Of a DNA stretch of 64,000 nt, positions 1,412 through 48,273 are shown in pieces. The stretch's first letter is position 1. The number at the start of each line of letters is the position of its first letter. Source of the DNA: a virus (Duplodnaviria; Caudoviricetes); the IMG/VR virus record IMGVR_UViG_2919450847_000005, positions 1 through 64,000 of that record. The stretch is one strand, 5' to 3'. The notes beneath the pieces were generated by a model, which had not been told where the DNA came from, made no database searches, and was given only the letters and a program-made list of their open reading frames with translations. Position numbers and translations under genes: made by a program.

Positions 1412-2128
1412 ATGTGTAACCTCTACAGCCACCATTCAAACCTGCAGGCGATCACCGACCTCGTCGGCACCCTGCGCAATGGCGCCGGCAACCTGGCGCC
1501 ACAGCCGGGCATCTATCCCGACTATCCGGCGCCGATCGTGCGCACCGCCGCCGACGGCCAGCGGGAGATCGTCATGGCTCGCTGGGGCATGCCGACATCT
1601 CAGGTCGTACAGATGGAGGCCACGAAGAAGCGCGCCGCCAAGCTGGAGGCGAAAGGCCAAGCCGTCGACTTCAAGGCTCTTCTGCGGATGGAGCCGGATA
1701 AGGGCGTCACCAACATCCGCAATACCGCCAGCCGCCATTGGCAGCGCTGGCTCGGCCCCGAGCATCGATGCCTGGTGCCCTTCACATCGTTCTCGGAGCC
1801 CCCGGCCGGCGCCAAGGGGCCCGACACCTGGTCATGGTTCGCATTGTCGCCTGACGAGCCGCTCGCCTTCTTCGCTGGGATCTCGACCACTTGGACGGGC
1901 GTGCGGAAGATCAGGGAGGGCGAAATCACCGCCGACCTCTACGGCTTTCTCACCACCGAACCCAATGCGGTGGTCGGGTCCGTCCACACCAAGGCCATGC
2001 CGGTGATCCTCACCACGGCAGAGGAGCGCGACGTTTGGTTGCGCGCGCCATGGGATGAAGCGAAGGCGCTTCAGCGGCCGCTGCCGGACGATCAGATCGT
2101 GATCGTGGAGCGGCCGGCTGCAGCCTAG
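1412..2128 (+). CDS. SOS response-associated peptidase (SRAP/HMCES-YedK family, abasic-site crosslinking protein)
   Basis: N-terminal MCNLY with catalytic Cys2, ARWGMP, NIR, RCLVP, H-x-x-AMPVIL motifs. Confidence 0.92.
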
Positions 2129-4350: not shown

Positions 4351-4574
4351 CGGTGCCCCCTGTTCTCAATGTGTCGGATCGCGGCGATCGCGGCGCCCCG
4401 GACTTCCTCTCCGGCGACGCGGAGGTTTTCAGCGGCTTTGACTTGCTCCTCTACGGCGCTTTCCAGGCGCTGCCGGATAGCCGCCGTCATGGCGTCGTTC
4501 GCCTCCGTCGTGATCGGTCGTTGCACGCGCCCGACCCCGAAAACCTTCATGAGTAGGGAAGCCCAAGCGCTCAT
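4347..4574 (-). CDS. Small coiled-coil protein (lysis cluster)
   Basis: ATGA-coupled ORF, amphipathic N-terminus. Confidence 0.6.
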   Translation of the reverse strand: MSAWASLLMKVFGVGRVQRPITTEANDAMTAAIRQRLESAVEEQVKAAENLRVAGEEVRGAAIAAIRHIENRGHR

Positions 4575-4849
4575 CGGCTGCCTCCGCGGTTCATCCCGGC
4601 CTCAACCACTCGTCGCAGGGTGTCGATGGACTCCTTGTTGGCGTCCATCGCTTCCGTGCTGGTGACCAGCGCGGTCGACATCTTCGCGACGTCCTCGCGG
4701 CTTTCCTCCACCCTCTTGTCCTGGAGGTCGTTGATGCGCTGCTGAAGCGCTTCGATGTGCTTCTCCCGCTGCACCAGCAGCCAACCGAAGAAGGCGGCGA
4801 GGAGTCCTCCTGGGCCCCATTCGATCAGCTTCTGGAGGATCAGATCCAT
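4571..4849 (-). CDS. Holin-like single-TM protein with coiled coil
   Basis: WGPGGLLAAFFGWLLV TM then heptad-rich tail; downstream of endolysin. Confidence 0.55.
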   Translation of the reverse strand: MDLILQKLIEWGPGGLLAAFFGWLLVQREKHIEALQQRINDLQDKRVEESREDVAKMSTALVTSTEAMDANKESIDTLRRVVEAGMNRGGSR

Positions 4850-4870: not shown

Positions 4871-5245
4871 TTAATTCCCGAGGGGCTTCTTCGCGACCCA
4901 GCGGCCGTAGAGCACGCCGAACTGCGTTCCGATGGCGGCAAGGTAGCCGCTGAAGGCCTCTACGGTCGGCGGCGTGCCGTCGCTGAAGTCGAGCCCGGCG
5001 GTGTAAAGCGTGGTGAGAATGCCGCCGATGGCGAACAAGGTGACGCGCGAAAGGAACCACGGCTCATTGTTGGTCTGGTTTATGACGACGGCCGACACCT
5101 CCTTGACGATGCGTCCGGTATCGACCGCCTCACCAGCGGCGAGGCCGACAGCCTCCCTCCTCACAGCCGAATGCGTTGCCGCCGCGATGGCAGGCGTGAT
5201 CGAGGCCAGCACGGCTTGCGCCGCCGCCTTTGAGGTCGTGCTCAT
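4871..5245 (-). CDS. Holin-like two-TM protein
   Basis: EPWFLSRVTLFAIGGIL and YLAAIGTQFGVLYGRW hydrophobic segments; GGAGACC RBS before MSTTS. Confidence 0.6.
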   Translation of the reverse strand: MSTTSKAAAQAVLASITPAIAAATHSAVRREAVGLAAGEAVDTGRIVKEVSAVVINQTNNEPWFLSRVTLFAIGGILTTLYTAGLDFSDGTPPTVEAFSGYLAAIGTQFGVLYGRWVAKKPLGN

Positions 5246-5260
5246 GGTGGTCTCCAAATG

Positions 5261-5288
5261 AAAAGGCCCCGCTTCTGGCGGGGCCCTT
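5261..5288 (-). terminator. Rho-independent terminator after the CapRel-like gene
   Basis: GGCCCCGC-ttctg-GCGGGGCC stem; AAAA at 5261-5264 reads as a U-tract on the minus strand. Confidence 0.7.
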
Positions 5289-5312
5289 GTGATAAGCGTA
5301 AGTAAGGACGGC

Positions 5313-6569
5313 CTATTTCTTCCGTTCATCCCATCGGGAATAACGCCTCCTCAGCCAACCGACGTCACCCCAACGGGTTGACGTAGGCGCCACAACTTCC
5401 TGCGGTGCCATTGTGTATTCAACGGCTTCTCGACCGTCACATATTCTTCTTAGATTAGAAACAAACAAAGAAACGTCTCCAAAGTAATTTGGATAGGTAT
5501 CAATCAATTTGTCGACTTTATCTACCTCAACCAATACGGCACGAGAGCCGTCGTTAGCCTCTTCAATCGTCGCCTCGAGTCGACCAAAATCATTCGACAT
5601 TGCGATGGGACTTTGATAGCTCTCGACCTTCACAGTGTGGTCAGGAAAATATCTGATCAGAAAGTATTTTGGCCCTCTCTCGTAGACGAAATTTTCCGCG
5701 TAGTGCGTTGCGTTTTTTATATTCTCCAGCATTGCAGCAGCACCAAGCCTACCGTCGAGCTCCTTTATCTCGGCGATACGGCTTGAATGGTCAGGCATAT
5801 CCTGATGAACTGGACATCCCTCGACATATGCAAACTCCGCTGATGCCAGCGCAAACAACCTCAACCAATCCTGATCGCCCTTGCCGTGTTTAAGATCCTG
5901 ACCTCGGTATAGGCTGACTGCTTCCACGGCCGTTGCCCAAGCATGTTGGAGGCGCGTCCGTACTTGAAGTTCAATACGGCGCCCGTCAAATGCTTCGGCT
6001 TCCTTTGAACGGGGACGGTAAATAAAGACAACATGGTGACTACGATAGCCATCACTCTTAGGATTGTCGATATAGGTATAATGTTGGCGAGCATCGTGGG
6101 GAAATTCGTCGCCGATCGCGGCCAACAGCGAGCGAACACCAGCTATTTCGTCCATGATCGCTCGGCATCCACCTAGGTCATTCATTTGATCGAGGCGTAC
6201 GGTCGATTCCCTTAGCTTGCGGCGTATCGATCCCATTGTCTTGGGTCGCGACGCCATTACGCCATATGCCTCAGCTTTATTCATTCGGTGGCGAACAGAA
6301 TACCTGATGCTTCGCATGGGATAGATATGCGAATCCCGCCAACTATTGGCTACCGTGAATGTTTCGACAATTTCTTCGTGAGATTCCGGCGTGAAAGCCA
6401 GATGCCGAGAGAGATGCTCCCCCGCCTTTCGGACGGCATTCATTGTGAAGGCTAGGCGAGGATAATCTGCCATTGGCCCCAGGTGGCGGATCTCGCCCGC
6501 CACCTCCTCGGATGCGCTGGAATCGATAGTTGCAACCTTACCCATGATGATCGTTGATTCACAACCCAT
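5313..6569 (-). CDS. capRel: CapRel-like fused toxic small alarmone synthetase plus C-terminal antitoxin domain
   Basis: RelA/SpoT synthetase motifs RPKTMGSIRRKL, DLGGCR, YIDNPKSDGYRSHH, ELQVRTRLQHAWATAVE; no hydrolase domain; C-terminal YFLI..Y region and YPNY (YxxY) motif; lower GC than flanks. Confidence 0.85.
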   Translation of the reverse strand: MGCESTIIMGKVATIDSSASEEVAGEIRHLGPMADYPRLAFTMNAVRKAGEHLSRHLAFTPESHEEIVETFTVANSWRDSHIYPMRSIRYSVRHRMNKAEAYGVMASRPKTMGSIRRKLRESTVRLDQMNDLGGCRAIMDEIAGVRSLLAAIGDEFPHDARQHYTYIDNPKSDGYRSHHVVFIYRPRSKEAEAFDGRRIELQVRTRLQHAWATAVEAVSLYRGQDLKHGKGDQDWLRLFALASAEFAYVEGCPVHQDMPDHSSRIAEIKELDGRLGAAAMLENIKNATHYAENFVYERGPKYFLIRYFPDHTVKVESYQSPIAMSNDFGRLEATIEEANDGSRAVLVEVDKVDKLIDTYPNYFGDVSLFVSNLRRICDGREAVEYTMAPQEVVAPTSTRWGDVGWLRRRYSRWDERKK

Positions 6570-6680
6570 TGCACCTTCACAGAGAAGGTTGAGGTAATAG
6601 GGAGATCCACCACAACGTCTCTGGGAAAAGATGATCCTTGACGTCGATGGCGATTGTTTTCGTCTCTTCCATGACGATCC

Positions 6681-7391
6681 TTACGCGGCGACGCTGATCG
6701 GCCGTGCATCGGTCGACCGGGCCTTGGGCAGCGAGGCGCTGTAGGGCGTGACGAACTGGTCGGCCTCGCCGGTGCGGCGGGAGATGATCTCGGAAGGCTT
6801 GCGCCACATCATGATGGCGGCGCGGATCCTCGCGGGCGTCTCGCCGGCATTGATCCGCTTCACAAAGGTCGCACCCGGGAAGGCACCAGTGCCGATGTTG
6901 TAGCAAACCGAGGTGAGCGCATCGAATTGGTGATCGGCCAGGCTCACCTTGATCGCGGCGCGCACCGCGTCCTCATACTGGACGATGTCGCGGGCGAAGA
7001 TCGCGTCCGCCTCGGCGGCCGTGATCGTCAGGCCGGCATAAGGGATCGGCGCGCCGGCGGCGGCGGTGTGGCCGATGCCGATGGTCCAGATACCCTTGGT
7101 GTCGCGATAAGCCGTCAGCTTGCGCGCCTCGCGGCTGATCAGCGCGGCGAGGCCGATCGCGCTCATGCTCTGGCGCGGCGGGGCCGGCGTCGGATCGACG
7201 GTGGCGCGAGCTTCAATGGCCGCCTTCAGCGCCGCCTGCGTCTTCGGGCCGGCGATGCCGTCGGGGTAGAGGCCGACCGACCGCTGAAACGCCACCGTCG
7301 CCGCCGTGGTCAGCTTGCCGGGACGGCCGTCGATCGGCCCCGGCGCATAGCCGAGCTTCGTCAGCTGCGTCTGCAGCTCACGTGGGTCCAT
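6681..7391 (-). CDS. Endolysin (peptidoglycan-binding domain + GH24 lysozyme)
   Basis: GPIDGRPGKLT and DGIAGPKT PG-binding repeats; REARKLTAYRDTKGIWTIGIGH lysozyme motif; QFDALTSVCYNIG. Confidence 0.92.
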   Translation of the reverse strand: MDPRELQTQLTKLGYAPGPIDGRPGKLTTAATVAFQRSVGLYPDGIAGPKTQAALKAAIEARATVDPTPAPPRQSMSAIGLAALISREARKLTAYRDTKGIWTIGIGHTAAAGAPIPYAGLTITAAEADAIFARDIVQYEDAVRAAIKVSLADHQFDALTSVCYNIGTGAFPGATFVKRINAGETPARIRAAIMMWRKPSEIISRRTGEADQFVTPYSASLPKARSTDARPISVAA

Positions 7392-7530
7392 TTCGGTGTT
7401 CCTTGCGATGGGAGTGGAATATGGTTGCGCCGGCCGGCCGCTCGGCTCCCCTGCGAGGCGGCAGGCTCGGCCGGGGGCGTTCGGCAAAGCCGCCCCCGGC
7501 CGCACCAAAAAATGCCCGTTCCGCGTCAGC

Positions 7531-7830
7531 TCAGTCTGGCAGGACCAGCAACTGCCAGCCTGTGAGCGTCGCGTCTGATGGTTCGACCGCGAAGCACTCC
7601 ATCGGTTCTTCGAGATCGAAGAAGGCGGGACGCTCCCAGTCTTCCGGCGGACCCGCCTCTTTCTGGGCAAGGAAATGCACGTTGTTGGTGTCGGCGAACA
7701 CCATGACCCGCTCGCGATACCGGAGCCCGGTGTCCAGGATCTGGTGGGAGACGAGCCAGTAATCGGTGTCGGTGCCGCCAGCGATCGATTGAAGACGGTC
7801 GCGAGTGAAGGTTCGCGCAAGGTTGGCCAT
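7531..7830 (-). CDS. Hypothetical protein
   Basis: Start MANLAR after GGAGAC RBS; in the late operon. Confidence 0.6.
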   Translation of the reverse strand: MANLARTFTRDRLQSIAGGTDTDYWLVSHQILDTGLRYRERVMVFADTNNVHFLAQKEAGPPEDWERPAFFDLEEPMECFAVEPSDATLTGWQLLVLPD

Positions 7831-7841: not shown

Positions 7842-9293
7842 TCAAGCCGCCAGACGCTCGACATCGATGGCGCCGGAAGTGGCCACGGAGTCGTTCGTGT
7901 ATCGCGTGGGGTGAATGCCGTCCGCAGTCCACTTGTTGGCCGTCCCGTCGACCTTCCATCGACCGGAATTGCGGGCGGTTTCGACCTGGTCCGCCACTTC
8001 GAACACACCATAGAGGGGATGGCCGGCCTCTCCGGCTCGCACTGCGCCGCTGGCGCCGGTCAATGCGGGTGCGGGGGCGCCCCCGATAAGTGGCGCGCGA
8101 TCGCGCAACCAGTCATTCAGTTGCTCGCGAACACCGTTTCCGGAGGTGGAAAAGCCGCTGCGCGCGGTTTGACCATTCGCGGTGGCAAAGTTGTCGGTCG
8201 AGGTGGTCTCCGGTGTCAGCGTGGTCTGGAACCGCCGCGTGTCGGGATTCACTGAGTATTTTTCGCCGAGCCTCCACAGGGCCAGCATGTTCGTCTTCAT
8301 GGTCGCCAGGGCTATGGCGGGATCGACGGCCGCGAGGCCGGAGATCGAGTTCACGCCGTGCTCGAAGACGATGCGCTTCACATAGGTCGCCAGCGAAAGG
8401 CGCTTGTGATGGCTCTGGAGGATGGTCTCGATGTCATCGCCCGCCATGGCGGCGCTGATATAGGCGTGGGTCGGGGCTACCGCGCGCCCGACGAGGCCGA
8501 AACCTTTGTCGACCGCATCCTCGGCCGCGTAGATATCGCCCGTCCCCTCGTTGATCGAGTCGCCGATGATCAGCACGCCCGGATGTGTGGTGCGGGCGAT
8601 GATACCGACCGGCCACGTGCCAACGGAGCGCGGCGGCGGATCGGTCGCAACCGTCGCGAAGCGCCGAGTCAGGTCTGGCACACGGGCCGGGGTGCCGGTT
8701 CCGCCGGAGGCCGTCGAACCTTCGGGGAAAGTGGCGTACTGGTTCTGCCGAAAATTGGCATGGGCGTAGCCGACCGAGCCATAGAGCGCGATCCGCGTCT
8801 CGATCTCCGTTCCCGCCGGCAGCACCTCACTGGCGCCATTGGTCAGGTCAGAAACCTTGATGAAGTTTGTGCAGATCTGGCCGCCCGCGGCCATGCCGCC
8901 CTGGGCGGCGCCGCCAAAGCCGAGCGTCTTGATGGTGCCAGCCGGGAACTGGATCCCGACCGACGCCACGACACCTGACTGGATACCCGTCTCCCATTTG
9001 TCGCCGTTGCGATTGGCGAACCAGTTCGGAAGGACGATGGCGATCTCGGTGACATCCGCTCGAAGGGTATGCCGGTTATGCGAGAACGTGCTGAACAACC
9101 CGTCCGTCGATTGCGCCGTGGCGATTCGGCAGTTGGTGGCCACTTGGCCATAGTGCTCGCCGTCGCCCAGGGGGAACTCGCGGAAATTCGGCGGCAGCAC
9201 GCCTTCACGGATGAGTTGATCATCGCTGAGGCTGCGGACAAGGCGCGGCGAGGTGACGCCGCCGGCGCGCTCGATATCGGCTTCGCTCAGCAT
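7842..9293 (-). CDS. SGNH/GDSL-family esterase domain protein, probably virion- or tail-associated
   Basis: IIGDSINEG (GDS), HGVN block, DGIHP (DxxH) catalytic motif; TGATG coupling to the upstream gene. Confidence 0.8.
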   Translation of the reverse strand: MLSEADIERAGGVTSPRLVRSLSDDQLIREGVLPPNFREFPLGDGEHYGQVATNCRIATAQSTDGLFSTFSHNRHTLRADVTEIAIVLPNWFANRNGDKWETGIQSGVVASVGIQFPAGTIKTLGFGGAAQGGMAAGGQICTNFIKVSDLTNGASEVLPAGTEIETRIALYGSVGYAHANFRQNQYATFPEGSTASGGTGTPARVPDLTRRFATVATDPPPRSVGTWPVGIIARTTHPGVLIIGDSINEGTGDIYAAEDAVDKGFGLVGRAVAPTHAYISAAMAGDDIETILQSHHKRLSLATYVKRIVFEHGVNSISGLAAVDPAIALATMKTNMLALWRLGEKYSVNPDTRRFQTTLTPETTSTDNFATANGQTARSGFSTSGNGVREQLNDWLRDRAPLIGGAPAPALTGASGAVRAGEAGHPLYGVFEVADQVETARNSGRWKVDGTANKWTADGIHPTRYTNDSVATSGAIDVERLAA

Positions 9294-9637
9294 CACTGGC
9301 GCTCCCACTTGGAGACGGCGGACAGGTTCCCGTTGGCGTCGCGGGTGATCGTCTGCACCCAGGACGTCGTGCCGTCGCTGATCGTCTGCTTCAGCAGGTT
9401 GCCGTTGGCATCGCGGGTGACAGCGGTCACGGCGCAGTCGTCGGGGTAGAGCAGCGCGCCGGTGTCGTCCTTCACCGCATTGCGGGCAGACGACGGCATC
9501 GGGTTGTCGCGGGTATAGGGCGTGCCGGTCTGATCGCTCGGAAGCGACTTCGGGATGTGGAGATCGGAGCCGAGATCCTTGGTGGCGAGGTTTCGCGCAA
9601 AGCCGTCGGCATCCATCGACTTAACGAAGTCGGGCAT
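9293..9637 (-). CDS. Small protein with two YD/RHS-like TRDANGNL repeats
   Basis: TRDANGNL occurs twice. Confidence 0.65.
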   Translation of the reverse strand: MPDFVKSMDADGFARNLATKDLGSDLHIPKSLPSDQTGTPYTRDNPMPSSARNAVKDDTGALLYPDDCAVTAVTRDANGNLLKQTISDGTTSWVQTITRDANGNLSAVSKWERQ

Positions 9638-11582: not shown

Positions 11583-12133
11583 CAGAGTCCGATCCCCGCA
11601 CTGAGGTTGAGGGCGCCGGCGGACGCGCTCACTCCCACGCCGCCGGTGCCATACGTGATGCTCGTCGAGACGCTGAGGCCGCTGGTGTCGAAGCCCATGG
11701 TGCCGAGCACCGCGATCTCGGCGATGGCCCGCGCCTCCGAACCGCCATACTGAATCATCGACAGGTGCGCAGAGACCATCTGCGGTGTGCCGCGTGTGTC
11801 GAGCATGGTCTCCTCGGAATCGAGGCTCACCGCGATCCAGAGGCCGAAGATGTTGATGCCGGCTCCGTTGAAGTGCACCAGCTGCATCGGGGTCAGCCGA
11901 TTCACCGCCAGGCGAACGCCGGCGAGCTGCGCCAGCCCGCGGCCGTTCAAGTGGCGCGGGTGGAAGGTCGACTCGAGGCTGATCGCTTCGTTGGCCGGGC
12001 CCAGTCGGTGAATCGACGGCATGGCGCCAATCACCGGCTGGGGTTCCACTCGCGGCTGAAGAGATCGCCGGATGCTTTCGACGGAGTAGTTCGGGACGGT
12101 GAACCGAAACGGTCCCCAGGCCATGAGCATCAA
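11582..12133 (-). CDS. Tail tube initiator (P2 gpU-like)
   Basis: MLMAWGPFRFTV...QPVIG...GP..E.ISL pattern; position after tape measure. Confidence 0.8.
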   Translation of the reverse strand: MMLMAWGPFRFTVPNYSVESIRRSLQPRVEPQPVIGAMPSIHRLGPANEAISLESTFHPRHLNGRGLAQLAGVRLAVNRLTPMQLVHFNGAGINIFGLWIAVSLDSEETMLDTRGTPQMVSAHLSMIQYGGSEARAIAEIAVLGTMGFDTSGLSVSTSITYGTGGVGVSASAGALNLSAGIGL

Positions 12134-15060
12134 GCGTCTCCGTAGTTCGCGCCTCCGAATGCGATCTGGACGGCGCGATTGAGCCTCTGGTCGAGGACAT
12201 CGACCAGCATCTTGGCGTCGGACTTGGTCGCGCCGCCGTGAAGGTGGATGGTGACCGGCATGTTGACCATCGGGCCGCCGCCGCCCATTGCTGAGCGGAA
12301 ATCGCGGTTGGACATGATCCGGCCGTTCTGCGACGGGATGAACGGTTCCGGTCCGCGCTCGCCGACCAGATAGGTCTTGCCAGCTTGCACCGGGCCACCG
12401 TCGGCGCGCGGCCCACCGAACTTGTTGGCGTTCGGCGGCGTAACGTACTCGGTCCCGCCGCCACCGCCGCCAATCGCGTTGATGGCGCCGGCGACCTGCC
12501 GCGCGAGGTTGAGGGCCTTCTCCAACCTCGTGGTGTCGACGTCGGGATGCCCGGTGACGGACAACTCCTTCTCGATCTGCTTGGCGATCTCCGCCGCCTT
12601 GGCTTCCGCCTCAGGCCCGCCCTGCTGGATAGCGAAGCCGTAATCGTCCATCGCCGCCTTGGCCTTGTCAGGCCAGGAGGAGATCGCCGAGTCCAGCTTT
12701 TCGAGCTCCGACTGGGTCGCCTTCGACTTCGCCGCATCGACCGAGGAGTGGTACTGCCCTCGGGCGCGCGACTTTCCGATGTTCGACGGGTTCACCCCAT
12801 AGTTGCGGATAAACCATCCGTCGATCGGATCCGTCAGTCCCCAGAGGTTGCCGTCCGGGTCCACCTCGTCGAGCGCGTCCATTGCCAGCACGCCGGTGCC
12901 GACGGCAGTGCCGCCACGTAGCAGCCCGACGCCCATGCGCTTCAGCAGGCTGCCGCCCACCTTGCCGGCCACAGCGCCGCCGACAGCCGCGCCAGCTTTG
13001 CCAAGGCCGCGCCCGCCTTTGCCGCCGCCAGGGAGACCGAGCACGTCGCCGATAAGCCCGGTGCCAGCCTTGAAGGAGGCATAGGCGGCGAGCACGCCGG
13101 CCGCCACCACCGCCGCCTCGGCCAGCCGGCGCACGGCCGGCCCAGCTTCAGTCAGCTCGCTCACCAGGTCGTCGGTGGTCTTGATGACCGGGCGGATCAC
13201 ACCCTCCCAATCCTGTACTGCCGTCGTGAGCGCCGTCTCGATGGTGCCGGTCAGCTTGGTCCAATCGCCATAGAGGCCCTTATTCGCTTCCGTTCCGATC
13301 TTGTTGGCGACGCCCGTGGGTGGCGCCTCCATCATCTGACGGAACTGCTGGAAGAGCGCCCACTGCTGGGCGATCATGTTCGCGCGGCCGCCCTGGCGAT
13401 CAGTGAAGAAGGCATTCAGGTTTCCAAGGGTCGGGTTGCTCGACATGATGGAGTTGAAAAGACCAACCACATCAACACTATCGACCGAATACTTGTGGTA
13501 GTCGGCGAGCCCCTTCGACAGAGCCGAGGCATCTCGAGCGGGCACCTTTCCCTTATTGTCCGTGAACAGTGGCTCCAGGATCTCGGTCATCCGAGTGACG
13601 AACTCGCCGCTGTCCGAGCTGACCGAGCGAGTCTCGCCGGTCTCCGGGTCGGTGAACTCGCCATTTTCCAGCAAGTCCTTGACCTTCGCCTCCATCTCCG
13701 GCGTCAGGCGCTTGCCGAAGTTGTTCTTCATCATGATGCCGATGCCCTCGGAATTGAGGGCGTCCGGCATGCGGACATAGTCGCTGTAGTTGATGCCCAT
13801 GGCGGCAAGGGCATCGCGGCCCTTCTTGGTCGGCGCCACCAGCTTGGAGGAGGCCGAGCGCGCGAACACGCCAGCTTCGTCACCACGCACACCGGAGCGG
13901 CGCAGGATCATGCCAACAGCGGCGGAATAGGGGTCCGGAAGCCCGGCGCCGGTCGTCGATGCCCCGCCATACTTCATGTACTGGCGGACGTCGTCGTCGC
14001 TCATGCCAGAGTTCTTCGCCATCCAGACCATGCTGTCGACGAAGTTCTTGATGGCCTTCACGTCGCTGAGGTCGACGCGCTTGGAGAGCGCCGCGCCGCG
14101 GATCGTCTCGGCGCCTTCCTCCAGCGTGACACCCATGGCGAGCGAGTAGTCCGTCACCTGGCGGGTGAGGTTCATGATCGTCTTGGTGTCGCGGATACCG
14201 CCCTGCAGGATCTGCGTCTGCGCCTGGATGACATCGACGTTCGAGAAGCGCGTCTCGCCGCCGATGTCCTTGGCCTGCTGGTTCAGCATGCCGCGCTCGG
14301 AGCTCGAAAACCCGCCAAGCGCCTGCTGGTAGTCAGCCGCCCGGCTGAAGTCGACGGCATAGGTGAAGCCCTGCTGCGCTCCCTCCCTCACCTTGGAGGC
14401 AATGATGCCGCCGCCGACGGCCACCGCGCTCTCGCGCTCTGGACTACGTCCGGAATAGCTTCCGGCGCCGCCGCCCGCCGGCCGCGGCACAGCCGGTGGG
14501 CGGCTAGGGCGCGGTATGGGCGCCGGCGACGGCCGATTGCGCAATTCGCGGTCCATCTGGCGGATCTGCCGGATGGTGTCGGCCATCTGTTTGCGGATGG
14601 CGCGCTGCGACCCGCTGATGTCCTTCTGGCTGTTGATGCCGAAGGTGCGCAGGTTACGCATCGACGCGAGGGCAGCCTGCCCCTGATCACGGAAGGCCTG
14701 CGTCGACTGCTTCAGCGCCGCTCGGGCGCTGCGCAGCTGCGTTTCCATCTGCTTGGTCGGCTTGGCCGCGGCGCCGAAGGCTGCCTCGAGGGTCTTCACC
14801 CGCGAACGCGCCACCTTCATCTCGACCGAGGTTTCCTTCAACCCGCGCAGAAGACCACGGAACTCGTTGATCGCGCCGGCTTTCTCGCGGAGGCCTTCCA
14901 GCTGCCGCGTAAGCTTGCCGACACCGGGCGCGCCGGATTTGCCCAGTCGAGACAGGGCCTGGTCGAGACTCTTCGCCGAGTTGGCGATGGACTTGGAGTT
15001 GCCGCTGAAGGAATCGATCAGCTGCAGGCGCAGGGACGCCGTGCGGGAGGAGGGAGCCAT
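12130..15060 (-). CDS. Tail tape measure protein
   Basis: ~976-aa Ala/Gly-rich helical ORF after the chaperones; C-terminal RADGGPV..G..YLVGERGPE motif. Confidence 0.9.
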   Translation of the reverse strand: MAPSSRTASLRLQLIDSFSGNSKSIANSAKSLDQALSRLGKSGAPGVGKLTRQLEGLREKAGAINEFRGLLRGLKETSVEMKVARSRVKTLEAAFGAAAKPTKQMETQLRSARAALKQSTQAFRDQGQAALASMRNLRTFGINSQKDISGSQRAIRKQMADTIRQIRQMDRELRNRPSPAPIPRPSRPPAVPRPAGGGAGSYSGRSPERESAVAVGGGIIASKVREGAQQGFTYAVDFSRAADYQQALGGFSSSERGMLNQQAKDIGGETRFSNVDVIQAQTQILQGGIRDTKTIMNLTRQVTDYSLAMGVTLEEGAETIRGAALSKRVDLSDVKAIKNFVDSMVWMAKNSGMSDDDVRQYMKYGGASTTGAGLPDPYSAAVGMILRRSGVRGDEAGVFARSASSKLVAPTKKGRDALAAMGINYSDYVRMPDALNSEGIGIMMKNNFGKRLTPEMEAKVKDLLENGEFTDPETGETRSVSSDSGEFVTRMTEILEPLFTDNKGKVPARDASALSKGLADYHKYSVDSVDVVGLFNSIMSSNPTLGNLNAFFTDRQGGRANMIAQQWALFQQFRQMMEAPPTGVANKIGTEANKGLYGDWTKLTGTIETALTTAVQDWEGVIRPVIKTTDDLVSELTEAGPAVRRLAEAAVVAAGVLAAYASFKAGTGLIGDVLGLPGGGKGGRGLGKAGAAVGGAVAGKVGGSLLKRMGVGLLRGGTAVGTGVLAMDALDEVDPDGNLWGLTDPIDGWFIRNYGVNPSNIGKSRARGQYHSSVDAAKSKATQSELEKLDSAISSWPDKAKAAMDDYGFAIQQGGPEAEAKAAEIAKQIEKELSVTGHPDVDTTRLEKALNLARQVAGAINAIGGGGGGTEYVTPPNANKFGGPRADGGPVQAGKTYLVGERGPEPFIPSQNGRIMSNRDFRSAMGGGGPMVNMPVTIHLHGGATKSDAKMLVDVLDQRLNRAVQIAFGGANYGDA

Positions 15061-15064
15061 GTCG

Positions 15065-15253
15065 CTACCTTGCGAATTGGACCGAAGCCTCCCAGAGCGA
15101 GGCGAGGTCATGGAACATCAGGCCCTCGATGTATTCGATCGAGACGCCGCCATGGCTCGTCGCCATCACCTCCATCGCTACCGCGAGCCATCCTCGGATG
15201 TGGAGGTCGGTTGGCTGGCCGCCGCGTCCGGCAACCCGGACTGAGCGAAAAAA
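15065..15253 (-). CDS. -1 frameshift extension of the tail chaperone (gpE+E' / GT-like)
   Basis: T-TTT-TTC slippery heptamer at 15247-15253; the -1 frame stays open to 15065. Confidence 0.7.
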   Translation of the reverse strand, partial: FFRSVRVAGRGGQPTDLHIRGWLAVAMEVMATSHGGVSIEYIEGLMFHDLASLWEASVQFAR

Positions 15254-16135: not shown

Positions 16136-17833
16136 TCACGCGGCGGACAGGACCGTGCCGCCAATGCGGGCGATCTCGCGGATCGCGGCGGCAGACAGGG
16201 TGTCGTAATAGCCGGTGTTGCGATTGAAGACGAAGGTGATGTGCTCCATCGGCGCCGGCGCCTCGGAGTCGTAGTGGATGTAGAGGTGTCCCGCCGCCCA
16301 GGTGGCCGCGGTGTTCAGCGTCGGGTCCAGCCAGACCCGCCCGCCGAGCGTCGCTCCCAGCGCCTGCCACCGGCGCAGGCCGGCACTCACCGTCTCGCCG
16401 ATGTCGACGAGGTTCTGCAGGCTGAAGGGCTTGTCGATGAACGGTTCGCAGGCGCGTTCGATCGAATCGATGATCGTGTCGTGCGCGCGGCGCACCGGCA
16501 GGAACAGCTTCAGGCTGTCCGAGGACGGGACCCGGTTGCCCCACAGCTTCAAGCCGCCACTCGGCGCCCGCACCACGCAGGCGATCGCGTTTCGATTGAG
16601 CAGCTGGGACTCGGCGGAAGGATCGCTGATCGAATGCTCGATCGGTCGGCCCGTGCCGATGATGCCTTCGATCACGTGGTTCGATGGCGAGACCCAGAAC
16701 CCCTCGGTGTAGTCGACACGGGCGATCAGGCCGGCGACGCGCGCCGAGACCGGCTCCGGCACCACCTGCGCATCCTTGAAGACCTTCACCGTCGGGTCGA
16801 CGATGTAGAGGCGGTCGGTGTCGTAGTCGGCACGGTCGGTAATCGCCGCCGCCGTGGTGGTGGAGGGGCCGTCCTTGATCACCACAGCGCGGAACTTTGC
16901 CGCCAGCGGCAGCATTTCGGCGATCACCGGGTTGGCGGCGGTGCCGAGCGTGGCGGTCGCGGTGGCCTGCGTGCCGCCCGCGGCCGGCGCGCCGATCACC
17001 ACGGTCGGGGCGGCGGCGTAGCCGTAGCCATTCTTGGTGAGCACGATGCCGGTCAGGCGACCAGAGAGCACTGCGGTTGCCACAGCGCCGGTGCCCGCAC
17101 CGCTGAAGCTGACGGCTGGCGGGTTGATGTAGCCGGACCCGGGGTTGGTGACCGTGATCCCGGTGACTGCGCCTGCCGCCACGGTAGCCGTCGCCGTCGC
17201 CTGCACGCCCCCGGTCGGCGGCGCCTCAATCACGACGGTCGGCGCCACCGTGTAGCCCGTGCCGCCGGCGCCCAGCGTGATCTTGATGCCCTTGGTAATC
17301 GTCGACACCGCCTCAGCGCCCGCGCCGCCGCCGCCACCGGTGAAGCTGATCGCCGGGGCCTCGGCATAATCGCTGCCGGCCGTGCCCACCGCGATAGAGG
17401 CGACGCCGTCGGTGGGGCGCTGCGAGGTGAAGCCGGGCGAGCAGAAGATTTTCGGCGTGAGGCCCTGCTCGTTCGGCGCACGCCGGAAAGCGTGCACGCC
17501 GGTATAGGCAGTCGAGCTTCCAAGGATGTTTTGGAAGGTCTGGTTCAGCGTCCCGCCGGCGGCGACGCGGACCACCAGGATGGTCTGAGACACGCGGGTG
17601 GCCTGGTCGAAAATGCCTTCGATGGCGTCCAGCAGGGTGCCGGACTCGCCGAGGCCCTCGACGGCACCGTTGGCGCCATAGACCGGCACCACGGTGTTGA
17701 GCGGCCAGAGCTCGCTGTTCGCATCGGGCGCCGTGCCGATGAGCGCGATGATGCCGGTATCGATGGTTTCGATCGGGCGCGGCCCAGTGGTGTTCTCGGT
17801 CGTCTCGAGACCGTGGAGAACCAGATCCGCCAT
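16136..17833 (-). CDS. Contractile tail sheath protein
   Basis: HG.ET.E...G.RPI...T.IIALIGTAP N-terminus; GFW.SPSN, LWGNR, PVRR C-terminal motifs. Confidence 0.92.
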   Translation of the reverse strand: MADLVLHGLETTENTTGPRPIETIDTGIIALIGTAPDANSELWPLNTVVPVYGANGAVEGLGESGTLLDAIEGIFDQATRVSQTILVVRVAAGGTLNQTFQNILGSSTAYTGVHAFRRAPNEQGLTPKIFCSPGFTSQRPTDGVASIAVGTAGSDYAEAPAISFTGGGGGAGAEAVSTITKGIKITLGAGGTGYTVAPTVVIEAPPTGGVQATATATVAAGAVTGITVTNPGSGYINPPAVSFSGAGTGAVATAVLSGRLTGIVLTKNGYGYAAAPTVVIGAPAAGGTQATATATLGTAANPVIAEMLPLAAKFRAVVIKDGPSTTTAAAITDRADYDTDRLYIVDPTVKVFKDAQVVPEPVSARVAGLIARVDYTEGFWVSPSNHVIEGIIGTGRPIEHSISDPSAESQLLNRNAIACVVRAPSGGLKLWGNRVPSSDSLKLFLPVRRAHDTIIDSIERACEPFIDKPFSLQNLVDIGETVSAGLRRWQALGATLGGRVWLDPTLNTAATWAAGHLYIHYDSEAPAPMEHITFVFNRNTGYYDTLSAAAIREIARIGGTVLSAA

Positions 17834-17885: not shown

Positions 17886-17907
17886 AAAAAAGCCGCCATG
17901 CGGCGGC
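17886..17907 (-). terminator. Rho-independent terminator between tail fibre and sheath genes
   Basis: GCCGCC-atgc-GGCGGC stem with an A-run read as a U-tract on the minus strand. Confidence 0.55.
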
Positions 17908-18042
17908 CGGGGTTGGATTTTTGGAACTGAGTTCTGATAGGGCTTATGAGGCCACACGATCTGCAGGCGCTTCCAGCCGTCACAGAACCCGAAGATAGCC
18001 AGAACGAGCCTTTTCCCGTCACTGCGGAGATGTTGAAGTCAC

Positions 18043-18588
18043 ATGTTCACTTTTCCATTTGAGCAGCCCGAAGTTTATGTGGGCAAGAATTGCCACATAA
18101 ACCCGCCGACTGTTTATTATTGGGGGGCTGGGAACAAGGTTTCCATTGGGAATTATTGTTCTATCGCCTCGGGAACAACGTTCATTCTTGGTGGAGAGCA
18201 CCCAAAAGCGTCTTTATCGACGAATACTATTTTGCATCAGATTGAAAAGACCCCGCGGTGCAAGGGTGACATCACCATAGGTCATGATGTATGGCTCGGG
18301 ACCAATGCAATTCTGCTGTCCGGCGTTGATATTGGAACCGGCGCTATAGTGGGAGCCGGAACAGTCGTTTCGAAAAACATCGAGCCGTATTCGGTCGTTG
18401 TTGGGAACCCAATGCGGATTATCCGCTATCGATTCTCGCCGCCAACTATTTCGCGCTTGCTGCATTCATCGTGGTGGGACATGGATCCCGACGCACTGAA
18501 CGAAGTGCTCCGCAGGAGTTCATCTGTCGATGAATTTCTTGATCTTTTCGAGCGTGAACATAATCTTCGCGGAGGTCAGACGTACTGA
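18043..18588 (+). CDS. Hexapeptide-repeat O-acetyltransferase (XAT / CatB-Vat-like fold)
   Basis: IGNYCSIA, GGEH, KGDITIGHDVWLG, GAIVGAGTVVSK, PYSVVVGNP.R.IRYRF, WWD motifs; antisense, low GC. Confidence 0.88.
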   Translation: MFTFPFEQPEVYVGKNCHINPPTVYYWGAGNKVSIGNYCSIASGTTFILGGEHPKASLSTNTILHQIEKTPRCKGDITIGHDVWLGTNAILLSGVDIGTGAIVGAGTVVSKNIEPYSVVVGNPMRIIRYRFSPPTISRLLHSSWWDMDPDALNEVLRRSSSVDEFLDLFEREHNLRGGQTY

Positions 18589-24591: not shown

Positions 24592-26796
24592 TCAGAGGCC
24601 CGGGTTCTTGTAGGCGAAGCGGTAGTCGGTCAGGCCCGCGCCAAAGTAGTGGTCGAGGCGATACTCGACGCCGTCATAGTCGAAGCCATGACGCTCCATC
24701 GTGCGCGGCGTCTCGTAGCCCGCGAGGTAGGCGTACTGCAGGCCGCGACCGAGCGTGGCGGCCGGCGACGCGAACAGGAACCAGGCCTTGGCGGACAGGC
24801 CATCGATACGGCTCTCGTAGACCGGCTGCATCGACTTGATCGCCTGGGGCACGATCTGGTCGGTGGTGGTCGGCGAGGTGATACCCTGGATGAGGGTCTG
24901 GGCGTCCACCTCGAGATCGGTGCCGGTGAACACGTAGGTCGGGGCGAGCGAGATCTGCTGGCCGTCGATGTCCTTCATGAGACGGAACGCCTTGCGGGCC
25001 GCGATCAGGTTGGCCTTGTCCAGCGCGGTGCCGGCCGCGGCGAGGTTGCCGTGGTTGGCATGGAAGAGGGCCGTGTTGTCGCTCTTCAGCTTCTTGTTGC
25101 TGATGATGACGCCCCAAGTGATATTGCCCTCAAGGCGGGCCACCACGCGGCCCCAGTTCGCGATGAGGTTGGAGAAGGCTCCGAGCTGATCGTTGATGAT
25201 GATCTTCTCGGTCAGGCCGATCACCTTGCCGTAGTGGCTGATGGTGAAGCCTTCCTCGCTCTCGCGGACGGTCCCGCGCTTGTACTCGCCCTTCTCGGTG
25301 ATCTCCTCGAGCTCGGGGCCGTTGCCCATCTCGAGCACTTTCACCTCGCGCAGATCCGGGAGCACGTTCCGGCTTCCGATCAGCTGGAAGGTGTTCTGCT
25401 CCTGCTCGAGGGTATAGGCATTCATCATCGTCTGGCGGGTAATGTCGCCGAGGATGATCGGGAAGTCGGTAGACGCATTCAGCGAGCGCCGGACGATGTC
25501 GATGGCCGCCCCACGCGGGCTCTCGCCGCGCGCCGCCAGACACTCGCGGGCGAGGTCGACGAGCGTCATGTTGCGGTACTCGTTCGCACCGGCCTCCAGC
25601 GTCGGTGCCAGGCCATGGCGATGCATGATGCCGTTGGCCGCGAGCCGGCGCATGGTATCCTGCGCATCGCGCCCGCCGCGCGTCGAGACGTGCGGGAAGG
25701 TGGGCGTCTGCGCCTGACGTGCGATCATCACGTCGAACGCCGTGTTGCGGAACGCCTCGATCGTGGTGCCGGTATCGATGGCCGTGCGCACCTGCTGGTC
25801 GTCGAGGGCGATACCGGCAGAGCGCGCCAGTTCCTCGATCTCGCGCACGCGCCGACGCTCATTGGCGACCGCCGTGCGGGACTGCTCCTCAACCTGCGCC
25901 TGCGTGACCGCAGGCTGCAGAGGGGCGAGGCCGCCAATACCAGTGGCGCTGGCGGCGCGGAGCGCGGCCTCCTCCTGCTCCCGGCGGGTGGCCTCTTCGG
26001 CAGAGCGCCGCTGCGCCTCCTCGGTGGCGCGGGCCGCGGCGTCTTCGGCGTCGTAGGCCGCCAGCAGGCGCACGCTCAGCGCCTCGTCGGTCTCGTTCGC
26101 GTTGCGGGTGATCCCGGCGCCGAGGGCCAGGGCGTCCAGCTTCTCGCCCTTGTAGGACTTGGCGGCGTCGCGCTTGTTCATGATGGAGTCCTTCTTCGTA
26201 GCGGCGGGCGCCGCGCCAATGGGGGTGTCCTGGCGAACCAGGACGGTGTCGTAGTCGTCGCCGCTGGGCTGCGATCGTGAGTAGGCGCCGGCATCCGCGG
26301 GCACCGGGACCGCTGACAGCTCCATGGGCTCCCAGTCGGTCGCACGAAGGATCGGCAGCTGGCCGTCGGACCCTTCGGTTTTCTCGTAGCGGTGGATTTT
26401 GTAGCCGACCGAGATGGAGACCGGATGCCCGTCCCGGAGATCTTGCAGGATCTCCTCCGCCTTTTGCTTCCGCGAGAACTTGATCGTCGCGTAGCCCTTG
26501 CCGCCGTCGATGCGGATACTGCCGGGCACCACCGTGCCAAGGCGCGAATCCATCGACCAGCTTTCGTGCGTGTCGAGCAGTGCCATGGCGCCAAAGCGGT
26601 CCATCCGGATCGCCTTATTGTCCACGGCAAGCTCTTCCATGTAGTACCCCTCATCCCAGGAGTACCTCTTCACCCTCGCGCCAGTGGTCCAGCAGACCTC
26701 GACGGTACGATCATCGACGTTCAGAGTGTCAGAGCGCACCTCGACGGCACCGAAGCCCTTCGGGATGCGAATTTCCTTCTCATTGGGTGCCGGCAT
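24592..26796 (-). CDS. Prohead protease - major capsid protein fusion
   Basis: N-terminal HK97-type protease (LLDTH, SVGY, W.P.ELSAVPVPADAG); linker; capsid domain (STDFP.IL, E..E.GEYK.G, GF..DG.E...R...G). Confidence 0.88.
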   Translation of the reverse strand: MPAPNEKEIRIPKGFGAVEVRSDTLNVDDRTVEVCWTTGARVKRYSWDEGYYMEELAVDNKAIRMDRFGAMALLDTHESWSMDSRLGTVVPGSIRIDGGKGYATIKFSRKQKAEEILQDLRDGHPVSISVGYKIHRYEKTEGSDGQLPILRATDWEPMELSAVPVPADAGAYSRSQPSGDDYDTVLVRQDTPIGAAPAATKKDSIMNKRDAAKSYKGEKLDALALGAGITRNANETDEALSVRLLAAYDAEDAAARATEEAQRRSAEEATRREQEEAALRAASATGIGGLAPLQPAVTQAQVEEQSRTAVANERRRVREIEELARSAGIALDDQQVRTAIDTGTTIEAFRNTAFDVMIARQAQTPTFPHVSTRGGRDAQDTMRRLAANGIMHRHGLAPTLEAGANEYRNMTLVDLARECLAARGESPRGAAIDIVRRSLNASTDFPIILGDITRQTMMNAYTLEQEQNTFQLIGSRNVLPDLREVKVLEMGNGPELEEITEKGEYKRGTVRESEEGFTISHYGKVIGLTEKIIINDQLGAFSNLIANWGRVVARLEGNITWGVIISNKKLKSDNTALFHANHGNLAAAGTALDKANLIAARKAFRLMKDIDGQQISLAPTYVFTGTDLEVDAQTLIQGITSPTTTDQIVPQAIKSMQPVYESRIDGLSAKAWFLFASPAATLGRGLQYAYLAGYETPRTMERHGFDYDGVEYRLDHYFGAGLTDYRFAYKNPGL

Positions 26797-28351
26797 TGCC
26801 GTCTCCGTTCTTGCCTCCCGGCTCCATCTGGAACTGGCCGTTGTTGGTGACCTTCCGTGGATCGGAATCGAGGATGACCTTGCTCGAGGTCTGGTCGACG
26901 GCGGTGTTCCACTCGTCGATTTCCTGCAGCACCTCCTTGGGATCCCGACCGGTTTTGCCGATGACCTCCTGCGGCGAGCGCTTGCCCATCCGCATCTCGA
27001 TGAGATCGGCGCGGGCATCGTCGAGGCGCGTGATGCTCTCGACTTCCGGCGGGTTCCACTCCACGCCGATCTTCCAGGCCCGAGGGATTTTCCCTGCGTC
27101 CTTTGCGGCGGCGATGAACCACTCCCAGACCTGCTGAAGCACCGGTGGGATCATGAAGTGCCACTGCACGGCGGACACGAAGGTCTGGTACTCGAGGAGA
27201 CCCAACTTGCCGGACGCGAAGTTCGCCTGGCTGAAGTCCCCCGTCAGCAGCTCGTAAGGCAGCAGCACGCCGGCGGCGATCGTGCGGTGCCGGGTCCTGA
27301 TGTAGGCCTCGATGCCGGCAGAGATGGCGGGCGTGTTGAACTTCACGTCCTTGCCGCCGCGCAGGATCGCAAACGACCCGGGCTCCATAGTTTCGAATGG
27401 GTTGCCCTGGAAGTCCTCGATCGGCGCACCCTTTTCCTTACCGTCGGCAGGGTCGAGGAGGCCGATGTTGGGATCGTCGGCGTTGTCGTCGGCGGGAATG
27501 ACCAAGCCAACGACGGCGGCCTCGGTCTTCTTGCGAATGTTCTCCGAAAGCTCGTAGTCAGCGAGGTTGTCGATGTCGTTCATCACCGGCGCCATCCAGG
27601 GCACGCCGTGCACCTGGTTGGTATCGGGGCGGTAGATGTGGGCGACGTCCGATGCGGGGATGAACTTGCTCGCCAGCGCCGTGCCGGTGCCCCAACCGAG
27701 GATGTCCTTCGGGTTCCGGGGGAACATCCAGTAGCCGGCTCGATTGCCGATCAGATCGAATTCGACGCCTTGCCGGATCTCATGGCCCGTGTCGGACGCC
27801 GTCGTCTTGCTCCAGTCGCAGTATTCGGAATCGAGGATCTGCAGCTGCAGCGGGACCGGCAATCCATCCGACGGGCGACGGCTGCGCTTGCGGAGGTACG
27901 CTTCGCCGTCCGTCACCATCATCCTGGTGAGCATGTACTGGGCGCCATAGAAATCCATGGCGCCGCCAGTTATGCACACCTTCGACCATTCATCGAAGAG
28001 CTCGTTGACCTTCTTGGCCTTATCCTTGGTCTTGCCGTCACCTTCGACTTTCGCCCGCGGCCTGATGCCGAAGCCGGTGATGTTGTTCGCGTGCGACGTT
28101 ACGATCTTTGCCGCGAGCGGATTATTGCGGACAAGATCGCGCGACCGGTCGCGAAGGCGCTGCCCTGCCTTTCCGATCTCAGCATCAGCGCCAGCCGATG
28201 AGCCGTGCCAGTATGCCGAGATGCGTCCGCGACCGGCAGCTTCGTATCTACGGGTGCCCTCGAGGAGGGCGATCCGTCGCCTGTTCGCTGCACGCTGTGC
28301 TCCGATTTTCGGGCTGAAGTAGCCGATCGCCTTATCCAGAAGGTTCGTCAT
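26780..28351 (-). CDS. Portal protein, lambda family
   Basis: RDRSRDL.RNN, GVEFD..G....YW, HI....R..Q..G.PW, Y..LTGD.S.AN..S motifs. Confidence 0.92.
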   Translation of the reverse strand: MTNLLDKAIGYFSPKIGAQRAANRRRIALLEGTRRYEAAGRGRISAYWHGSSAGADAEIGKAGQRLRDRSRDLVRNNPLAAKIVTSHANNITGFGIRPRAKVEGDGKTKDKAKKVNELFDEWSKVCITGGAMDFYGAQYMLTRMMVTDGEAYLRKRSRRPSDGLPVPLQLQILDSEYCDWSKTTASDTGHEIRQGVEFDLIGNRAGYWMFPRNPKDILGWGTGTALASKFIPASDVAHIYRPDTNQVHGVPWMAPVMNDIDNLADYELSENIRKKTEAAVVGLVIPADDNADDPNIGLLDPADGKEKGAPIEDFQGNPFETMEPGSFAILRGGKDVKFNTPAISAGIEAYIRTRHRTIAAGVLLPYELLTGDFSQANFASGKLGLLEYQTFVSAVQWHFMIPPVLQQVWEWFIAAAKDAGKIPRAWKIGVEWNPPEVESITRLDDARADLIEMRMGKRSPQEVIGKTGRDPKEVLQEIDEWNTAVDQTSSKVILDSDPRKVTNNGQFQMEPGGKNGDGNAGTQ

Positions 28352-28581
28352 CAGACGCCCCTCCGGAACGTGGTGAGTACGACCTGGGGCCGCTTCGGCT
28401 TGCCGGCGATCGCGGCCTCGAGGTCGGTGATGATCGCCTTCATCTCCTCGATCGACCGGTACGTGACGTCGCGCTCGCGGAACCGGACACGTGTGGCGCC
28501 GAGGTAGTAGGCCTCTGTGAGGTCTCGCAGCAGTTCGCGCTTATCGGCCGGCGATAGAACGTCGATGTCGATGCCGGGCAT
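28351..28581 (-). CDS. Head completion protein (lambda gpW-like)
   Basis: L.EAY..G...V....R.VTYRS..E...I..LE pattern; TAATG coupling to terminase. Confidence 0.82.
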   Translation of the reverse strand: MPGIDIDVLSPADKRELLRDLTEAYYLGATRVRFRERDVTYRSIEEMKAIITDLEAAIAGKPKRPQVVLTTFRRGV

Positions 28582-44326: not shown

Positions 44327-44338
44327 AAAGGGGCGAAG

Positions 44339-45058
44339 TCACTTTTCCTCCCGCTGAGTGGTGGCAGTGGACACAGCTAAGAAGGCAAAATCCGCCATGA
44401 TAAGCGCGTTGACGCTCGATTTCATGGTGGAATAGGTCACGATACCATGAATGCAGGCATGTCGGTTGGGGACTGGGTCTCGTGAAATGGCCTCGATGGA
44501 TTCCTTTGTCTTCAGCTTTTTGTACATGTGATTTGTTAACTTCTCAATGAGCCCGTACGTAAACATACCGCCACCATCTGCGTACTCTGCGATTACTTCG
44601 CCGGAGCTCCTTTGCAATTCATGGAGGCTTGAAATCATTTTCCCGGGCTCATCTTTTTTATGCCAAGTGATGCGCCCCAATCGCTCAAGTTCCGGAAATA
44701 TCAATCGAGGTACAGATCTATAAAATCCTGCCTCATGGCAATTGATAGCCTCTTCGAATGTCGCTTTAGCTTCATCGTCGATATTGTGTTTGGAGACCGA
44801 GCTGAGCAAAGTGTGGCGGACCGCGATCCAGTTGTCGCGATAAAATTCTTCGAGTCGCAGGTCTAGTATTGCTGGGTCCAGAAATACGGATTCTTCAAAA
44901 TCTGGTGTCGTTGCGTGAGGTAGCCATCCGGATAAGATGACCTGATCAGATCTAGCGATAGCTTTATTGAAACCTTCGACGGCTCTAGATATGTTCCGAA
45001 GGATGTTCGTGAACGGAGTTATGTCGATGCGAGGGAATAACTGTCGAATCGTGGTCAC
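44339..45058 (-). CDS. Low-GC antisense moron with an Rx4H (HEPN-like) motif
   Basis: 239 aa, GAGGGG RBS, NRHACIHG near the C-terminus; AT-richer than flanks. Confidence 0.7.
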   Translation of the reverse strand: MTTIRQLFPRIDITPFTNILRNISRAVEGFNKAIARSDQVILSGWLPHATTPDFEESVFLDPAILDLRLEEFYRDNWIAVRHTLLSSVSKHNIDDEAKATFEEAINCHEAGFYRSVPRLIFPELERLGRITWHKKDEPGKMISSLHELQRSSGEVIAEYADGGGMFTYGLIEKLTNHMYKKLKTKESIEAISRDPVPNRHACIHGIVTYSTMKSSVNALIMADFAFLAVSTATTQREEK

Positions 45059-45183
45059 TTTCCCCTCATCAATCTCAAGAGCATGAGGTGTGATATATAA
45101 CCGTAGTTATCTCATTCTGACAGAAATTTTTAGATCCGCTCACGACCAACGCCCCGCCGCTAATGGCAATCAAGGAGACCGGC

Positions 45184-45792: not shown

Positions 45793-45794
45793 AC

Positions 45795-48254: not shown

Positions 48255-48273
48255 TGGCTGATCGGGTGACGAA

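Follow-up and report, generated by a model that had tools for sequence, protein, structure and literature searches.

The window analysed here is a 64,000-nucleotide stretch of DNA (positions 1 to 64,000 of the IMG/VR record IMGVR_UViG_2919450847_000005, a virus of the Caudoviricetes), and all coordinates below refer to it unless another contig or copy is named. On its minus strand an uninterrupted open reading frame (ORF) of 418 codons (5313..6569) encodes a protein that sequence, Pfam, PADLOC and structure all place among the CapRel-type fused toxSAS toxin-antitoxins. The ORF occupies an inserted cassette of 1,435 bp (5246..6680), bordered upstream by an endolysin gene (6681..7820) and downstream by a conserved partner gene of that endolysin (4871..5245), all on the same strand. 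The protein joins an intact toxSYNTH domain, with all catalytic and ATP-binding residues, to a sensor domain that carries a YPNY motif, and the cassette around it has a foreign composition, a precise point of insertion and a predicted terminator.

The domain layout can be read along the minus strand. The toxSYNTH (RelA_SpoT synthetase) core, placed by Pfam and alignments at residues 107-223 (5901..6251), includes the ELQVRT catalytic strand and is the only Pfam match of the 418-residue protein (RelA_SpoT, PF04607, E = 2.5e-18); a hydrolase domain was not found by Pfam. Some 190 residues lie beyond the core. They begin with an antitoxin/sensor region (residues 224-377, 5439..5900), which aligns to residues ~205-370 of CapRel SJ46, matches it in structure, and consists of anchor helices, a variable pseudo-zinc-finger-like beta domain containing the string KYFLIRYF, and anchor-2. 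Within this region the YPNY at 5484..5495, formed by Y359 and Y362, is the putative YxxY neutralisation motif by alignment to Y352 and Y355 of CapRel SJ46. The protein ends in a C-terminal tail of about 40 residues (5316..5438; EYTMAPQE...D.GWLRRRYSRW), recognised from the homologue alignment. At the other end, the first ~24 residues are without conservation and are modelled with low quality. The entry in the public protein collection begins at the second ATG (6545) and has 410 residues, and many homologues start at the methionine equivalent to the ATG at 6473, so that the true start should be one of three ATGs, at 6569, 6545 or 6473. The initial annotation had given the element as 5261-6569; the reading frame stands, while the boundary at 5261 also takes in the terminator, the ORF itself ending at 5313.

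Among solved structures the best relative by sequence is CapRel SJ46 (PDB 7ZTB and 9ERV; E = 2e-21, query residues 67-375 against chain residues 36-368), and the alignment spans both the toxin and the antitoxin parts. By BLASTP the protein is 25% identical to the CapRel SJ46 gene product across 366 aligned columns (E = 4e-26). In a search of 50,697 phage records, SJ46 was the sole near-full-length match; next came partial matches to a phage of E. coli and gp29 (PhRel) of phage Phrann, the latter with a tblastn E value of 4e-7 across query residues 32-263. PADLOC returned a single match, to the model PDC-S33, over the full length of the protein (339 bits, E = 9e-102). When CapRel SJ46 was run against the same collection, PDC-S33 was again the sole match (290 bits, E = 7e-87), so that the model amounts to a profile of the CapRel family, against which the window protein scores higher than the type member. 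Our literature search found no paper on PDC-S33. The GTP diphosphokinase models of NCBIfam scored 37 bits, far under their cut-offs of 320-947.

An AlphaFold2 model built from an alignment of 85 homologues had a mean predicted local distance difference test score (pLDDT) of 90.6 and a predicted template modelling score of 0.86. Foldseek placed three CapRel chains on top (E = 2.5e-18), and VIA-align to 7ZTB gave a Z of 26.7 with a root-mean-square deviation (rmsd) of 3.5 Å over 278 residues (model residues 30-371 against chain residues 12-372). The runners-up were small alarmone synthetases at a Z of about 15 (15.3), chains of ~190-200 residues that correspond to the catalytic domain and align to the N-terminal domain only. 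At full coverage the Foldseek superposition on CapRel had a global rmsd of about 10 Å. CapRel SJ46's crystal structure is of the open state (PMC9712102), and a different domain orientation in the model would fit this deviation. From the letters and translations, the initial annotation had proposed a CapRel-like fusion made of a complete synthetase-only RelA/SpoT domain followed by a region with the strings YFLI..Y and TYPNYF, to be compared structurally with CapRel SJ46. The fusion is borne out by homology to CapRel SJ46 that runs through the sensor domain, by a best fold match to 7ZTB/9ERV in which both domains of the model superpose, by the common PADLOC model and by the retention of key residues; both strings are present in the translated ORF, and the lone RelA_SpoT match agrees with a synthetase lacking a hydrolase.

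We read the functional residues off sequence alignments to CapRel SJ46, using the numbering of the 418-residue form unless the 410-residue form is stated. In CapRel SJ46 the G-loop tyrosine is Y155, ATP is coordinated by R79 and R116, and the YXXY motif is formed by Y352 and Y355 (Zhang et al. 2022, PMC9712102). The aligned residues here are Y175 (codon 6045-6047), R108 and R136, and Y359-P-N-Y362. The initial annotation had assigned the autoinhibition motif to the YFLI..Y segment, an assignment that we do not retain: in the alignment this segment falls on a sensor-domain strand ('FFLVRM' in SJ46), and the YxxY motif is present instead as the YPNY inside TYPNYF. Interface residues at which a substitution activates CapRel SJ46 are A77, V338, L339, A341 and A351, and also R116 (PMC9712102). 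Four of these are conserved in the window protein (A77 as A106, R116 as R136, V338 as V345, L339 as L346), with glutamate (E348) at the position of A341 and threonine (T358) at that of A351. The A351 position is occupied by alanine in 71 of the 85 homologues. Every CapRel feature that can be addressed from sequence and structure thus appears to be present, save for the two interface positions, A341 and A351, that differ.

Conservation across the 85 homologues follows the same architecture. R100, R128, Y167 and E192 (410-residue numbering) are invariant, and no variation is seen in the two ATP arginines, in the G-loop GYR or in the catalytic strand's E-Q-R. In the YPNY motif the proline, the asparagine and the second tyrosine are retained in 98-99% of sequences and the first tyrosine in 73%. 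Column entropy is highest in the pseudo-zinc-finger domain (2.80), compared with 1.87 in the toxSYNTH core, 1.81 in anchor-2 and 1.0 in the block around YxxY (residues 351-360 of the 410-residue form). CapRel likewise has a variable pseudo-zinc-finger domain, which sets phage specificity (PMC9712102). The C-terminal tail is a further feature of the family around the window protein: at least 25 residues are present at this place in 73 of the 85 homologues, following the pattern EY.h.PQE ... D.SWLR ... R.RRW with a basic end. Its pLDDT in the model is 61-82. CapRel SJ46 ends at aligned position 370-371, i.e. without this ~40-residue tail.

The cassette differs from its surroundings in composition. 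Its G+C content (GC) is 0.509, against 0.638 and 0.658 in the two flanks, and an equally low value is found in 1.1% of same-sized windows across the 64 kb. GC at third codon positions is 0.50 in the cassette gene and 0.79-0.88 in the adjacent phage genes. Five homologues in Mesorhizobium have a GC of ~0.51-0.52 within surroundings of 0.56-0.63, and the low GC therefore appears to travel with the gene. The endolysin stop codon is separated from the first ATG of the CapRel-like ORF by a leader of 111 nt (6570..6680, minus strand), in which we found no sigma-70-like promoter by a consensus scan that covers alphaproteobacterial promoters poorly. Most of the leader is filled by a 31-codon ORF (6577-6672, minus strand; MEETKTIAIDV...), which is without known relatives and is probably not a gene. 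Past the other end of the ORF, an intrinsic-terminator-like hairpin with a U-run is predicted by RNA folding (5256..5288, minus strand). The hairpin (5262-5288) starts 25 nt past the stop codon and has 11 bp, 8 of them G-C pairs, and a loop of CAGAA, followed by UUUUCAUUU; its folding energy (dG) is -21.6 kcal/mol (z = -2.3). Hairpin and U-run directly precede the Shine-Dalgarno sequence GGAG (5252-5255) and the ATG of the next gene. A consensus terminator scan did not detect the hairpin, which direct folding did, and the three A-U/G-U pairs that can lengthen the stem into the T-run suggest how it escaped the scan.

To compare the junction in related prophages, we searched for relatives of the endolysin and obtained six close copies (L028 to L033, 73-86% identical), in all of which a homologue of the downstream gene follows the endolysin. 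In L029 and L032 the distance from the endolysin stop to the partner ATG is about 25 nt, compared with 1,435 bp in the window. L029 belongs to another prophage in the window's own genome (contig 10, 156617-157312); its endolysin is 85% identical to that of the window and it carries no cargo, which makes it a natural 'empty site' control. The window and L029 are similar as far as the stop codon of the endolysin, and similar again from the partner ATG onwards. The remaining four copies hold other cargo at the junction: a ~1-kb piece with a GC of 0.56 and two ORFs (153 and 156 residues) that overlap in L028 (6913-7781), a DUF6527 gene in L030 (6560-6874), a 72-residue reverse-strand ORF in L031 (6805-7023) and a 112-residue reverse-strand ORF in L033 (6778-7116). 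None of these cargos has a PADLOC match, and Pfam gives nothing for them except DUF6527 in L030; they could be further unannotated genes expressed in the lysogen. With the junction in related prophages either empty at ~25 nt or filled by other cargo, we class the gene as a moron and the junction as a hotspot for cargo. The initial description of an insertion within the lysis genes, lower in GC than its flanks and with its own terminator, agrees with the empty junctions, the measured composition and the predicted hairpin.

The neighbours themselves were identified with unequal certainty. The endolysin has Pfam matches to Phage_lysozyme (E = 2.7e-29) and PG_binding_1 (E = 5e-14) and a PHROGs match (phrog_7, E = 9e-42); the coordinates 6681..7820 are those of the longest ORF, and the real start is probably further in. 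The partner gene at 4871..5245 matches phrog_29088 ('unknown function'). Its product has two weakly hydrophobic C-terminal segments, no Pfam match and no 19-residue segment above a Kyte-Doolittle value of 1.6, and a protein atlas lead towards holin scored 0.86, below the reliable range. Of the initial placement between endolysin and holin-like genes, the endolysin side is thus secure, while the holin label is an unproven guess from position. Next to the partner gene, at 4571-4849 (minus strand), lies a gene for a 92-residue protein with an N-terminal hydrophobic stretch (GPGGLLAAFFGWLLV) and then a charged, probably helical region, a layout resembling that of an i-spanin; no family match was found for it.

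Classical morons, as known from lambdoid phages, are extra genes with their own terminator that sit between genes adjacent in relatives. Like them, the cassette shows precise insertion at a ~25-nt junction, deviant GC, a predicted 3′ terminator and a site re-used by varied cargo. It differs in that a promoter of its own was not recognised and in that the slot it fills, flanked by the endolysin gene and the phrog_29088 gene, belongs specifically to the lysis module of these Ancylobacter prophages. We therefore describe the cassette as a moron whose slot has been used repeatedly for cargo, with a recognisable promoter as the one missing element.

The family to which the gene belongs is large, mobile and patchily distributed. 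Representative clusters at 50% identity number 4,199 at E <= 0.001 and 875 at E <= 1e-30. The closest homologues are 74% and 61-64% identical, and the closest named relatives are found in Mesorhizobium, Rhizobium, Sinorhizobium and Methylovirgula (55-64% identity). Within the host genus, three of 42 genomes have a CapRel-like gene, the other two copies being 37-42% identical. A single-protein scan of viral contigs returned no relatives, which an alignment-based scan then found on at least 277 IMG/VR viral contigs. A tally of 144 flanking ORFs at 80 viral loci gave DUF968 proteins, integrases and S24/HTH repressors as the commonest neighbouring families, with holin S seen twice, antiterminator Q once and some tail proteins. 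Flanks of this kind, whether integrase, repressor, Q, holin or tail genes, mark the places where temperate phages usually carry morons. Two candidate associations were rejected. An endolysin is not a usual neighbour of the family, as an endolysin related to that of the window lies near just one of the 80 viral loci; nor is there a conserved upstream partner gene, since the ~100-residue ORFs at the five Mesorhizobium loci are unrelated to one another and to the 31-codon leader ORF. PHROGs gave no phage function for the neighbours of these five homologues, and in the literature we found nothing specific on CapRel morons beside prophage endolysins.

Taken together, we consider it likely that the window gene is a CapRel-family fused toxSAS, a moron of one gene that was acquired horizontally by a myovirus-like prophage whose host is an Ancylobacter-like soil alphaproteobacterium, and that it works by the CapRel mechanism known from its homologue. 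By analogy with CapRel SJ46, the protein would rest in the lysogen in a closed state, in which the YPNY motif occludes the ATP site. On infection, a phage protein, either the capsid or another small protein, would bind the variable sensor domain and open the enzyme, which would then pyrophosphorylate the 3′-CCA ends of tRNAs and stop translation. The resulting abortive infection would protect the population of lysogens and, with it, the prophage. Toxicity, tRNA pyrophosphorylation, the existence of a trigger and protection are thus all expectations carried over from CapRel SJ46. The terminator would keep lysogenic transcription of the moron out of the downstream lysis genes, and late transcription would have to read through it.

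Several points weigh against this reading. The protein is only 25% identical to CapRel SJ46, the characterised member; two of the five tested SJ46 interface residues appear altered in the alignment (A341 to E, A351 to T); and the first tyrosine of YxxY aligns with phenylalanine in about a quarter of homologues. The conserved ~40-residue tail is without a counterpart in SJ46, and regulation may differ accordingly in this group. The start codon of the ORF is ambiguous from the sequence. Finally, no promoter was recognisable in the leader; defence would require the gene to be expressed in the lysogen, yet it could instead be transcribed with the late operon only.

Four other explanations have to be weighed, all of which we regard as improbable. 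The one that survives best is that the protein is a fused toxSAS producing (pp)pApp, which would drain ATP as FaRel and Tas1 do; the logic of defence would be the same and the effector chemistry different. The toxSYNTH fold is common to both kinds of enzyme, Tas1 (6OX6) is among the VIA-align structural matches, and the choice of substrate is unreadable from sequence. Against this, Tas1 scores far under CapRel (Z = 10.8 versus 26.7), and the nearest characterised relatives are PhRel and CapRel SJ46, the latter a tRNA pyrophosphokinase by its PDB title. A difference in chemistry of this kind is only slightly more probable, in our view, than a second alternative, in which the enzyme serves the phage in its own lytic cycle, as a late-operon product that shuts off host translation or times lysis, rather than in defence. 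The gene does lie on the same strand as, and within, the string of late and lysis genes, and it is here that the failure to detect a promoter of its own counts. Yet relatives of the prophage that share its lysis module lack the gene or hold unrelated cargo in its place, its composition is foreign, and a terminator is predicted at its end. Homologues moreover occur at varied prophage positions (by integrase, repressor, Q, holin and tail genes), as is typical of morons expressed in the lysogen, and an autoinhibition motif would imply an enzyme that waits for a trigger.

Still less credible is an ordinary small alarmone synthetase that makes (p)ppGpp and modulates host physiology, its C-terminal domain being merely regulatory. 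The RelA_SpoT domain does draw weak matches to GTP diphosphokinase models, and structures of small alarmone synthetases do align; however, the former stay far below the NCBIfam cut-offs and the latter are limited to the N-terminal domain, whereas the C-terminal domain and YPNY are specific to CapRel, and a separate long Rel/SpoT is encoded in the host genome. Least probable of the four is a passenger gene in decay and without function, as nothing speaks for it except the ambiguous start and the question of expression, and the frame of 418 codons is unbroken, none of the family's invariant residues is missing and the structural model is very confident. None of these alternatives fits the full-length CapRel architecture together with the anatomy of the cassette as well as a CapRel moron does.

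More widely, the surrounding genes make up the minus-strand late region of a myovirus-like prophage. Its genes include the terminase (28581-30659), the portal (26780-28351), a protease-major capsid fusion (24592..27018), the sheath (16136-17833), the tape measure (12130-15111) and an esterase (7842-9308), along with baseplate and fibre genes. The protease-capsid fusion, which the initial annotation had attributed to this phage, matches phrog_4523 ('major head and protease protein') at E = 1.6e-183. The long Rel of the host clusters at 90% identity with that of Ancylobacter oerskovii (Alphaproteobacteria, Xanthobacteraceae), and an alphaproteobacterial host is therefore supported; with the late-gene context, this upholds the earlier suggestion of a prophage-borne gene in such a host. 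Two further protease-major-capsid fusion genes, ~30% identical, lie in the host genome on contig 5 (31490-33640) and contig 20 (13145-15190), which shows that several prophages with this head-gene layout reside in one host. If the gene acts as CapRel SJ46 does, the capsid of its own prophage must logically avoid triggering it, as had been pointed out initially, and the two further capsid fusions would need to be tolerated likewise.

Elsewhere in the window, stretches with a GC below 0.55, against a background of 0.63, also occur at about 17900-19300, 43800-45900 and 46600-49000, which suggests that they are other morons of the same prophage. Two of these stretches overlap genes that the initial annotation had read as an acetyltransferase gene and a HEPN-like gene, and neither has a PADLOC match. 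Near the end of the late region a gene for an SOS-response-associated peptidase (SRAP) lies on the opposite strand (1412-2128, plus strand; Pfam E = 3.9e-18).

Among known systems, the closest is CapRel SJ46 itself, found in Salmonella phage SJ46 and E. coli prophages, which likewise unites toxSYNTH and a pseudo-zinc-finger sensor/antitoxin with anchors in one polypeptide (PDB 7ZTB, 9ERV; PMC9712102, PMC11578894). The two proteins share the ATP arginines, the G-loop tyrosine, the string YPNYFG, the match to PDC-S33, a variable sensor and residence in a prophage. They differ in setting, as SJ46 is a P1-like plasmid prophage and the window gene belongs to an integrated myovirus-like prophage of an alphaproteobacterium, and in the protein, which here has diverged to 25% identity, with ~40 extra C-terminal residues and E and T at the positions of A341 and A351. 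PhRel-ATphRel (gp29-gp30) of mycobacteriophage Phrann is a homologous toxSAS that acts as a prophage-encoded defence against superinfection (Jimmy et al. 2020, PMC7229694), and a defence role of the window gene would parallel it. In PhRel-ATphRel and in the bicistronic CapRel-ATcapRel of actinobacteria, toxin and antitoxin are separate genes (PMC7229694), whereas in the window they are fused, with no partner gene alongside.

The CapRel-like family is already large, modelled in PADLOC and known from prophages, and the present gene extends current understanding without altering it. Only two elements lie outside the textbook picture, namely the C-terminal tail particular to the clade and, next to the endolysin, the slot with its varying cargo. 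We raise as tentative possibilities that the tail, which most members of this soil and alphaproteobacterial clade have and no characterised CapRel has, is an extra regulatory or target-binding element, and that the junction of endolysin and partner gene is a dedicated hotspot of defence cargo whose other fillings, in L028, L030, L031 and L033, are undescribed anti-phage genes. If the tail is such an extra element, the clade would have a different activation or substrate logic. To our knowledge, there are few immune proteins of bacteria whose direct sensing of a phage protein is, as in CapRel, structurally understood, and the experiments that we know of have so far concerned three closely related enterobacterial proteins. 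The window gene is a tractable representative of a very large branch (875 clusters, at least 277 viral contigs) that has other hosts and the extra tail. The slot beside the endolysin is a cheap place for finding more prophage-borne defence genes, and a representative of this branch could show how far the capsid-sensing paradigm reaches, with the resident capsid genes serving as negative controls.

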